IMG/VR virus record: IMGVR_UViG_2695420643_000022
Length of the DNA stretch: 9,262 nucleotides
Direction: 5' to 3' (one strand)
DNA from: a virus
Lineage: Duplodnaviria > Heunggongvirae > Uroviricota > Caudoviricetes
Position numbers and translations under genes: made by a program. Below, piece by piece: positions 8,219 to 9,262 of the stretch. The stretch's first letter is position 1; every line of letters begins with the position of its first letter. The notes below the pieces were generated by a model. That model was not told the DNA's origin and ran no database searches. It saw only the letters and a program-made list of their open reading frames with translations.

Positions 8219-9262
8219 ATGCGTGATTACGCAAAAGTTTCTCCGCGATTCTGGCTGGGAGAAACGGGGAGAGAACTTAGAAAGGCGGGTGCAGAAGCGC
8301 AAGTTGTTGCTTTTTACCTGATGACATCCCCTCACGCAAATATGCTGGGTTTGTATTACCTGCCAGTTTTATACCTTGCTCATGAAACCGGGCTTGGTCT
8401 GGAAGGGGCTTCAAAGGGGCTTAAAAGGGCTGTTGAAGCTGGTTTTTGTAGCTATGACCATGATGCAGAGATGGTCTGGGTCCATGAAATGGCAGCCTGG
8501 CAGGTTGGGGAAACGTTGAAGCCTGGCGATAACCGTTGTGCAGGTGTCAGGAATGAGTATGCATCATTACCTGAAAACGCTTTTCTGTCAGTGTTTTACG
8601 ACAGATATAAAACGGATTTCCATCTGGATGTGAGGCGGAATAATAGCCGAAATTCGGTAAGGGGCTTCGAAGGGGCTTTTAAGGGGCTTCGAAGCCAAGA
8701 ACAGGAACAGGAGCAGGAGAAAGAACAGGAACAGGACAAAAACACTATGGTTCATGGCAAAAAAAACACCACGAACCAGGCAGGGGATGTTCAGACCGTC
8801 AATCCTGGTCAGCCAGCAGGCACGACACCGGAAGCCGATTCAGCGTATGCGCTGAAAGCCGATTCGGGCGCTGTGCAGCAGGTGATGACCGCAGGGTCGG
8901 AGCAATCACACCAACTGCAGCAGCCTGAAGCCGATTCCGCCATTCAGCGGGAAGCCGATCGGGTAGTCCCGGAAAGCACCGGGCAGTCTGTGGGACGAGT
9001 GGATTATCCGGATGTGTTCGAACAGGTCTGGCGGGAATACCCGTTGCGTGCTGGGGCAAACCCGAAGAAATCCGCTTTCAGTGCCTGGAAGGCCAGATTG
9101 CGCGAGGGGGTGCCACCAGAGACCATGCTGGATGGTGTGAGGCGTTACGCGAGATACCTGGCGGCGACCGGGAAAGCGGGAACGGAATTTGTTCAGCGAG
9201 CGACGACGTTTTTTGGGCCGGACCGGAATTTTGAAAACCCCTGGTTGCTCCCGGTAAGCGGC
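8219..9262 (+). CDS. Phage replication initiator/replisome-organizer-like protein, 5' partial (348 codons, open to the window end)
   Basis: SD GAGGT before ATG 8219 (an in-frame ATG at 8108 has no SD). C-terminal part ...DYPDVFEQVWREYPLRAGANPKKSAFSAWKARL...TFFGPDRNFENPW resembles the conserved phage replication-protein C-terminal motif (F..W..YP...K..A...W...). Gene position matches ydaU of Rac. Confidence 0.55.
   Translation, partial: MRDYAKVSPRFWLGETGRELRKAGAEAQVVAFYLMTSPHANMLGLYYLPVLYLAHETGLGLEGASKGLKRAVEAGFCSYDHDAEMVWVHEMAAWQVGETLKPGDNRCAGVRNEYASLPENAFLSVFYDRYKTDFHLDVRRNNSRNSVRGFEGAFKGLRSQEQEQEQEKEQEQDKNTMVHGKKNTTNQAGDVQTVNPGQPAGTTPEADSAYALKADSGAVQQVMTAGSEQSHQLQQPEADSAIQREADRVVPESTGQSVGRVDYPDVFEQVWREYPLRAGANPKKSAFSAWKARLREGVPPETMLDGVRRYARYLAATGKAGTEFVQRATTFFGPDRNFENPWLLPVSG
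8403..8431 (+). repeat. Three tandem AAGGGGCTT-like repeats at 10-bp spacing inside the replication gene
   Basis: GAAGGGGCTTC / AAAGGGGCTTA / AAAGGGCTGT read directly from sequence. Confidence 0.55.
8649..8681 (+). repeat. Three tandem AAGGGGCTTCG repeats at 11-bp spacing (candidate iterons of an origin inside the replication gene)
   Basis: AAGGGGCTTCG / AAGGGGCTTTT / AAGGGGCTTCG; contains the palindromic core GCTTCGAAGC; immediately followed by a GAACAGGAACAGGA(G/C) 16-bp direct repeat pair (8688-8727). Confidence 0.55.
8831..8960 (+). repeat. Four copies of (G/A)AAGCCGAT(T/C) direct repeat at 8831, 8855, 8927 and 8951 (spacings 24, 72, 24 bp) inside the replication gene
   Basis: Read directly; in the protein they encode repeated PEADS/KADS/READ segments. 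Confidence 0.5.

Follow-up and report, generated by a model that had tools for sequence, protein, structure and literature searches.

The DNA analyzed here is a stretch of 9,262 nucleotides from the IMG/VR virus record IMGVR_UViG_2695420643_000022, referred to in its whole length as the window. It ends within a phage gene that carries several sets of short direct repeats. An initial annotation, made from the letters alone, labeled this gene a replication initiator and proposed that the repeats inside it form a lambda-like origin bound by the gene's own product. The label is backed by matches of the product to PHROG 1701/3729 (DnaD-like helicase loader; replication initiation protein) and by the gene that directly follows, which encodes a DnaC/IstB-type AAA+ loader (PF01695, NF009043). 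The features of the locus, in window positions, are the following:

8219..9262, + strand: initiator gene, first 348 of 371 codons, start codon ATG at 8219 (full gene, locus L001 9120-10235; WP_001205820.1)
8403..8433, + strand: cluster 1 of candidate iterons, with exact AAGGGGCTT at 8403 and 8414 (8403-8422) and a degenerate third unit, carrying a one-base deletion, at ~8425-8433
8575..8625, no strand: most AT-rich stretch of the gene (GC 0.35, measured over 8560-8619), 35-85 nt upstream of cluster 2
8659..8689, + strand: cluster 2 of candidate iterons, with exact AAGGGGCTT at 8659, 8670 and 8681, one per frame, encoding RGFEGAFKGL
8692..8744, + strand: a phased AAGCCAAGA unit, then a (GARCAR)n microsatellite encoding SQ(EQ)n, which holds a 16-nt repeat pair
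8737..8745, no strand: mosaic joint; the DNA past ~8739 is ~95-96% identical to phages with a different initiator N-terminal domain
8828..8959, + strand: four copies of GAAGCCGAT(TC), at 8831, 8855, 8927 and 8951, in one frame, encoding PEADS, KADS, PEADS and READ

Short direct repeats within the initiator gene

The word AAGGGGCTT is present in five exact copies, at 8403, 8414, 8659, 8670 and 8681, which are 11 nt apart within each of two clusters; the clusters themselves are separated by 256 bp. No further copy, with up to one mismatch, was found in the window. When the window was shuffled 2000 times with its dinucleotides preserved, the two strands together carried 0.10 exact copies on average and 2 at most, versus the 5 observed, and Tandem Repeats Finder reports a period of 11 in both arrays. 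Relative to the ATG at 8219, the copies are found at offsets 184, 195, 440, 451 and 462. Because the period is 11 nt, adjacent copies fall into different reading frames; those of cluster 2 occupy all three.

Two other sets of repeats lie further downstream. The 16-nt pair proposed in the initial annotation is exact: AAGAACAGGAACAGGA occurs at 8697-8712 and again at 8721-8736 (100% identity), inside the (GARCAR)n tract at 8699-8744. The GAAGCCGAT-like copies, at 8831, 8855, 8927 and 8951, all share one reading frame and derive from a duplicated 36-nt unit, 96 nt apart. Matches to this word with at most one mismatch number 9 in the whole window, as against 2.3 expected, and none of 200 shuffles reached 9. 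All four repeat sets of the initial annotation therefore exist, but the range it gave for the second cluster, 8649-8681, is wrong and should read 8659-8689. It had also placed the repeats in a segment encoding a low-complexity linker, and translation from 8219 indeed yields EQEQEQEKEQEQ and the PEADS repeats.

Conservation of the repeats at the DNA level

Homologues of the N-terminal domain of the initiator (hereafter, the N-domain) were collected from annotated phages (L002-L008) and from one genome per species (L009-L087). The genome set is mostly from Gamma- and Betaproteobacteria, with protein identities of 47-81%. After dropping loci more than 90% identical in DNA, 69-70 non-redundant loci were retained, and the motif was counted in these with up to one mismatch. 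Of the 69 loci, 59 have two or more copies at the site of cluster 1 (+184/+195), with few exceptions on the + strand, and 62 have two or more at the site of cluster 2 (+400 to +520), compared with 0.22 hits per kb in the flanks of the same loci. Adjacent copies are spaced by exactly 11 nt in 143 of 160 cases. In nearly all homologues, cgAAGCCARGA continues the phase of cluster 2 and leads into (GARCAR)n, with n ranging from ~4 to >15. Four loci (L069, L076, L077 and L079, at +405 to +570) have an iteron spacing of 12 rather than 11 nt, and in these the frame is shifted and the (GARCAR)n tract is read as (AG)n or (EG)n instead of (EQ)n, with a reading frame that is still open to normal length.

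At cluster 1, the encoded peptide E-G-A-x-K-G-L is invariant in the N-domain, and the codons that spell it are nearly so, namely GAA in 62 of 63 cases, GGG in 64 of 66, GCT in 53 of 66, AAG in 61 of 61, GGG in 55 of 64 and CTT in 61 of 68. High-GC hosts would otherwise favor GGC, GCC and CTG. The third-position entropy of these six motif codons in the 70 non-redundant loci is 0.12, 0.23, 0.79, 0, 0.59 and 0.63 bits, respectively; for other conserved codons it is 1.3-1.9 bits where degeneracy is four-fold (six-fold for Leu/Arg) and ~0.9-1.0 bits for almost all two-fold codons. The H-E-T-G-L-G codons just before the motif vary freely, and 8401-8422 is the longest run of third-position conservation in the N-domain.

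At cluster 2, the position is constant and the strand is not. The motif is on the - strand only in 47 loci, on the + strand only in 10, the window included, and on both in 11. This change of strand at a fixed place means that unrelated peptides are encoded; that is, the cluster 2 peptide alternates among loci between (R)GxEGAxKGL and SPxEAPSKPL, and the DNA word alone is kept.

The motif also occurs outside coding sequence. In the 45-kb genome of Acinetobacter phage B1251, all exact copies are within 5611-6116, and the non-coding leader, which runs from the upstream stop codon to the ribosome-binding site, contains one exact and one single-mismatch copy (L004 1463-1482, equivalent to L291 5611-5630). 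A leader pair of this kind, upstream of the start codon, is found in 5 of the 69 loci. Extra pairs or triplets in the non-coding leader were noticed also in L018, L023, L035, L036, L038 and L056, where they might serve as an autoregulatory operator. For B1251, the initiator gene begins at 5916 in the deposited annotation, whereas the conserved ATG is at 5649.

Because the synonymous sites are frozen, the place of cluster 2 is constant despite the switch of strand, and copies are found in non-coding DNA, we conclude from this comparison that the AAGGGGCTT repeats are under direct selection as DNA. The initial annotation had named conservation of the protein alone, and not of the repeats, as the outcome that would speak against an origin; the homologous loci show the contrary. 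A literature search with the exact motif returned unrelated matches only, and no paper giving the motif.

A candidate origin core and its alternatives

The initiator protein matches no Pfam family at E <= 0.1. Residues 1-189 match other PHROGs than residues 164/215-371 do, and the protein is thus modular. Its parts are as follows:

Residues 1-140: N-domain, winged helix in the model
Residues 141-175: segment encoded by cluster 2, and (EQ)n linker
Residues 176-260: variable linker
Residues 260-371: conserved C-terminal domain (C-domain), with a DnaT-like tail at its end

An AlphaFold2 model of residues 1-172 was built from 15 sequences (mean predicted local distance difference test score, pLDDT, of 75). 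Over residues 25-88 the elements come in the order helix, strand, helix, helix, strand, strand; three further helices follow, and the tail is disordered from residue 145 onwards. The N-domain thus models as a winged-helix fold, which would provide the initiator with a sequence-specific DNA-binding domain. The predicted recognition helix comprises residues 60-73, and in this model cluster 1 encodes its start, E62-G-A-S-K-G-L68. At the other end of the protein, the last 24 residues (L001 10161-10232, past the end of the window) closely match the C-terminal tail of DnaT, a restart protein of E. coli. The C-terminus ends in ..QRCVNHISEPDTEIPPGFRG (tail ..SEPDTEIPPGFRG), an ending shared by YdaU of the Rac prophage (L293 3920-3977) and by several homologues. 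The succession of an initiator with a DnaT-like tail and a DnaC-like loader mirrors the chromosomal dnaT-dnaC pair. A sequence search of solved structures returned the DnaT tail only; a match to a designed repeat protein was discarded as low-complexity.

The AAGGGGCTT clusters combine short direct repeats in helical phase, conservation as DNA and linkage to a cognate initiator gene. Because the repeats are kept as DNA independently of frame and strand, are linked to the N-domain and have a loader gene adjoining, we consider it probable, on comparative grounds, that the clusters are iterons, in all likelihood bound by the winged-helix N-domain of their own gene, and that they form the core of the prophage origin. 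The proposal of an origin made of initiator-binding repeats within the initiator gene can therefore be upheld for these clusters; support for it does not extend to the PEADS repeats, which belong to the C-terminal module (see below). Binding by the N-domain, origin activity, the place of unwinding and the recruitment of the helicase are what we infer from these data. In the mechanism envisaged, the initiator would be translated from the early rightward operon, and several copies of it would bind the sites of both clusters, whose 11-nt phasing corresponds to about one helical turn. The bound clusters, 256 bp apart, might then be brought together in a looped or wrapped nucleoprotein complex, in which a nearby stretch would be destabilized; the candidates are the AT-rich 8575-8625, which separates the clusters, and the purine-rich tract directly past cluster 2. 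Lastly, the C-domain with its DnaT-like tail would recruit the host DnaB through the DnaC-like loader encoded immediately downstream.

Two candidates for the unwinding element were considered. At the AT-rich stretch, a GC dip of -0.15 against the mean of the locus is shared by the 67 loci compared, and 8575-8625 is a weak candidate. The stretch encodes a conserved F/Y/K/D-rich helix, however, which could explain the dip, and the evidence for an unwinding element is weakened thereby. The + strand of the (GARCAR)n tract has a purine content of 0.83 and an AT skew of 0.7-0.8 in the window; it lacks support as an unwinding element in high-GC hosts, where it is GC-rich. No DnaA box, with up to one mismatch, is present at 7800-9262.

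Several observations weigh against an origin bound by the N-domain. Neither an experiment nor a published origin mapping for this initiator family was found in the literature. The same tandem motif occurs in phage proteins without detectable similarity to the N-domain of the window, so that a different, shared binder is possible. A clearly AT-rich unwinding element adjoining the repeats is not seen, given the composition of (GARCAR)n in high-GC hosts and the amino-acid composition that may account for the dip at 8575-8625. Finally, at cluster 1 the DNA motif is entangled with the conserved peptide EGAxKGL, and part of the conservation there is thus due to the protein.

If the repeats are bound by the initiator, they might still not be the origin. 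That is, they could be operators or roadblocks serving autoregulation or copy control, with the origin proper located elsewhere. Rep proteins of iteron plasmids commonly autoregulate, and in the 5 loci with a leader pair the extra copies immediately precede the start codon and cover the leader and ribosome-binding site, the place expected for binding by an initiator that represses itself. However, such upstream copies are missing in most loci, and sites 180 and 440 nt inside a reading frame are odd operators. In neither the 19-kb prophage segment nor the 45-kb phage genome was a further repeat cluster seen. The operator and origin roles are, in addition, compatible with each other. Overall, we regard this explanation as unlikely.

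The occurrence of the motif beyond the N-domain family bears on whether the N-domain is the binder at all. An exact scan of IMG/VR for the tandem motif yielded at least 120 loci. Among the matches listed, 80 of 120 loci have an N-domain homologue detectable by tblastn and 40 of 120 do not. Most of these 40 listed loci show the same layout, with two phased clusters 180-300 nt apart inside an open reading frame of 210-280 codons; past the second cluster comes a linker of the (DK)n, (DM)n, (GK)n or (NS)n type, and the contigs are low-GC phage contigs. Examples, within the set L172-L289, are L184 5280-6029, L188 9125-9931, L253 3920-4651 and L267 2360-3118. In a profile comparison with these low-GC families, the motif-encoded peptide alone aligns, with a probability of 18%. 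A further match, L249 2700-3900, has ~15 motif copies in inverted pairs (AAAGGGGCTT...AAGCCCCTTT) in AT-rich DNA outside long open reading frames; it is hairpin- or terminator-like and probably unrelated.

These loci raise the possibility that the motif acts not through the N-domain but through another shared protein, or through a structure of single-stranded DNA, for instance a hairpin at which priming or helicase loading takes place. The lack of a tblastn-detectable N-domain homologue in 40 of the 120 listed loci, although most of these 40 show the same layout, and a profile comparison in which only the motif-encoded peptide is common to both sides, are consistent with another binder. A structure is favored by the fold predicted for the + strand of 8645-8745 (z = -3.9), a region in which 8663-8696 contains a 10-nt perfect inverted repeat (GGCTTCGAAG / CTTCGAAGCC) arising from the CTTcgAAG junctions between iterons. 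This palindrome is particular to the window, however: the two spacer bases are not constant from locus to locus (cg, tt, ca, gc and others occur), so that conservation does not extend to the stem. A G-quadruplex was rejected, as the clusters of many loci contain no more than two G-runs and half of the loci have C-runs on that strand. A common host factor is not evident among hosts that span Enterobacterales to Burkholderiales plus the low-GC phages, and the families without a recognizable N-domain may themselves be remote homologues with the same fold. We therefore consider action through another factor or a structure to be quite unlikely.

The low-GC families may be either remote homologues that have kept the site or cases of the motif paired with another binder. 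A wider and decidedly more tentative proposal, to which we lend less than even credence, is that AAGGGGCTT is the origin repeat of a very large and old set of initiators, comprising the 5401 representatives of the N-domain family together with the dissimilar low-GC families. If this were true, origin DNA would dictate protein sequence, with an array that can be read in any frame or strand, and in the family of the window one array would encode the very recognition helix that reads it.

The DNA around the second cluster is also a boundary between modules. In a megablast search against phages, matches begin only at window position 8739 (query position 640), at 95-96% identity, and in protein alignments the change comes at '..NTMVHG'. 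The C-terminal module (C-module) is common to the window and phages Tritos, Evi and 640R1, which carry another N-domain, and this Tritos-type N-domain gives a weak match to a replisome organiser (PF09681, E 0.016). Conversely, N-domains of the window type are joined to various C-domains among the homologues, one of them PF09524. The gene of the Tritos type has repeats of its own, namely GCGCGTCACGAAATGTCACGC at L168 1150 and 1420 and ATGTCACGAC at 1183 and 1443, with the core GTCACGAC again at 1455 (ranges 1150-1170, 1183-1192 and 1420-1465 of phage Tritos). They form two clusters separated by ~270 nt, a (TDKD)n linker comes directly after the second, and the same arrangement is found in L169 and L170. 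On this evidence from alignments, the N-domain, the iterons and the (EQ)n linker behave as one portable specificity module that appears to be set on interchangeable C-modules.

The PEADS repeats fall on the other side of the joint. All four copies are present also in phage Tritos, whose C-module is ~95% identical to that of the window, and outside relatives of at least 64% identity the conserved C-domain begins only past the PEADS stretch. Since these repeats belong to a C-module shared with another N-domain and are conserved only among close relatives, the GAAGCCGAT/PEADS copies are unlikely to be iterons of the window N-domain. GAAGCCGATTC is identical at 9 of 11 positions to the inverted iteron GAAGCCCCTTC, and in Shigella phage 75/02 one PEADS-type copy is kept as DNA and read in another frame.

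With a mosaic joint directly past the (EQ)n tract, at ~8739, and a window-type N-domain fused to several different C-domains, the conserved junction DNA might be thought to be a module-boundary sequence that promotes recombination among mosaic phages, rather than a protein-binding site. This is very unlikely, as it fails to account for cluster 1 inside the domain, for the strict 11-nt phasing, for the strand flips and for the copies in the leader. That the repeats are by-products of repeated peptides and a low-complexity linker, with no function as DNA, is hardly tenable: the invariance of EGAxKGL and the single frame and duplication origin of the PEADS copies suit it, making it plausible for the PEADS repeats only, but for the AAGGGGCTT clusters it is contradicted by synonymous sites frozen at the motif only, adjacent copies in different frames, cluster 2 peptides that are unrelated when the strand differs, and copies in non-coding DNA.

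As regards the source of the DNA, window positions 8100-9262 match, at 100% identity, prophage DNA from many Shiga-toxin-producing E. coli, e.g., O103:H2 strain 12009; the prophage segment of the window shows no stx gene. The annotated neighborhood is a Rac-like lambdoid early region with an integrase, a RecE-type exonuclease, dicB, a repressor, a cro-like regulator and a YdaT-like protein. After the YdaT-like gene, the annotation lists a 371-codon 'hypothetical protein', a 228-codon 'ATP-binding protein', DUF1627 and DUF977. Identities of the loader are 81.6% with YdaV from the K-12 Rac prophage and 84.2% with its counterpart in Shigella phage 75/02. The open reading frame at 7685-8176, upstream of the initiator gene and on the opposite (-) strand, is annotated in RefSeq as an 'ECs1072 family phage-associated protein' pseudogene with an internal stop (L001 8586-9041).

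Comparison with known replication systems

The arrangement resembles that of lambda in part. The lambda origin falls within the central part of gene O, and its repeats are bound by O (PMC7466680). In the window, too, the repeats lie inside the initiator gene, at the boundary between an N-terminal part, for which DNA binding is predicted, and a linker. In both systems the N-terminal part and the repeats are specific to the phage type, the C-terminal part would serve helicase recruitment, and the loader gene lies immediately downstream. Nevertheless, the analogy with lambda drawn in the initial annotation holds only in part. The initiator has no detectable homology to O, with no Pfam match, and the name 'Protein O' is no more than a label that depositors gave to related phage genes. 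Lambda has four contiguous 19-bp inverted-repeat iterons (four to six in lambdoid phages) together with an AT-rich tract (PMC7466680). The window, by contrast, has 9-bp words at 11-nt spacing in two clusters, one of which is inside the DNA-binding domain, and no clear adjoining AT-rich tract. The partner differs as well, being a DnaC-type AAA+ loader here and P in lambda.

A second parallel is phage SPP1, in which oriL is embedded in gene 38 and its repeats, the AB boxes, are bound by G38P, a protein without an AAA+ domain that works with a separate loader and is assigned to PF09524 (PMC5737612). In both systems the gene of the organiser itself harbors the repeats, and a PF09524 C-terminal domain is present in several proteins homologous to the window N-domain. 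The window protein itself, however, has no PF09524 domain and no significant match to PF09681, and its repeat sequence is another. In SPP1 there is also a distant second binding region, oriR; no counterpart was seen for the window family in the 19-kb segment or the 45-kb phage.

Theta plasmids with iterons are similar in having direct repeats about one helical turn apart, a winged-helix initiator and possible autoregulation near the promoter. Their iterons are usually 17-22 bp long and intergenic, in contrast to the 9-bp words inside coding sequence found here. No autonomous plasmid with the window module was found in the plasmid collection; the only small 'plasmid' match, a linear record with chromosomal genes and a prophage, is uninformative.

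The prophage backbone of the window resembles that of the Rac prophage, which has an active origin, oriJ (PMC3945230); the loader is related to YdaV, and YdaU ends in the same ..IPPGFRG tail. The N-domain of YdaU (DUF1376) is nevertheless unrelated, the initiators share their last 19 residues only, and the repeat words are different. The K-12 Rac ydaU gene contains GATGTTSAA-like repeats in two groups (L293 3263-3360 and 3504-3560), followed by a KDTDKD linker, and these may mark oriJ. A sequence-level map of oriJ was not found in the literature.

Members of the initiator family are found in phages of type Eru4, a replication type common among Stx1 phages of pathogenic E. coli and Shigella, whose products are described as 'proteins of unknown function' and a 'putative helicase', with no origin or repeats reported (PMC8951638). 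Eru4 is defined by two genes next to cI (PMC8951638); here it was matched by homology of the initiator and the loader. In the Eru4 phage 75/02, the N-domain is 79.6% identical to that of the window and the loader is as similar as noted above; the Eru4 phages 75/02 and POCJ13 have the same motif in the same two places. With POCJ13, the second Shigella phage of the Eru4 type, the C-module has ~65% identity. Cluster 2 of 75/02 is on the opposite strand relative to the window. Judged by these identities, the window initiator is of the same family as the Eru4 replication region of Shiga toxin (Stx) phages. The Stx phage replication types Eru1-3 are different systems.

The N-domain family comprises 5401 representatives at the 50% identity level (E <= 0.001), has no Pfam model, and its members are usually annotated as 'hypothetical' or 'DNA-binding protein'. 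Replication of Stx phages drives toxin production. A candidate origin with a 9-bp site offers a handle for binding and mini-replicon work, for the annotation of origins in thousands of prophages and for the building of replicons. The repeats also provide a clean natural case of selection at the DNA level overriding the choice of codons, and even of peptide, inside a gene. Taken together, an iteron origin inside the initiator gene is a well-known kind, and the candidate origin described here would represent a new family of that kind. Its unusual features are that the two clusters bracket most of the DNA-binding domain, that one of them encodes the predicted recognition helix, and that the other is free in strand.

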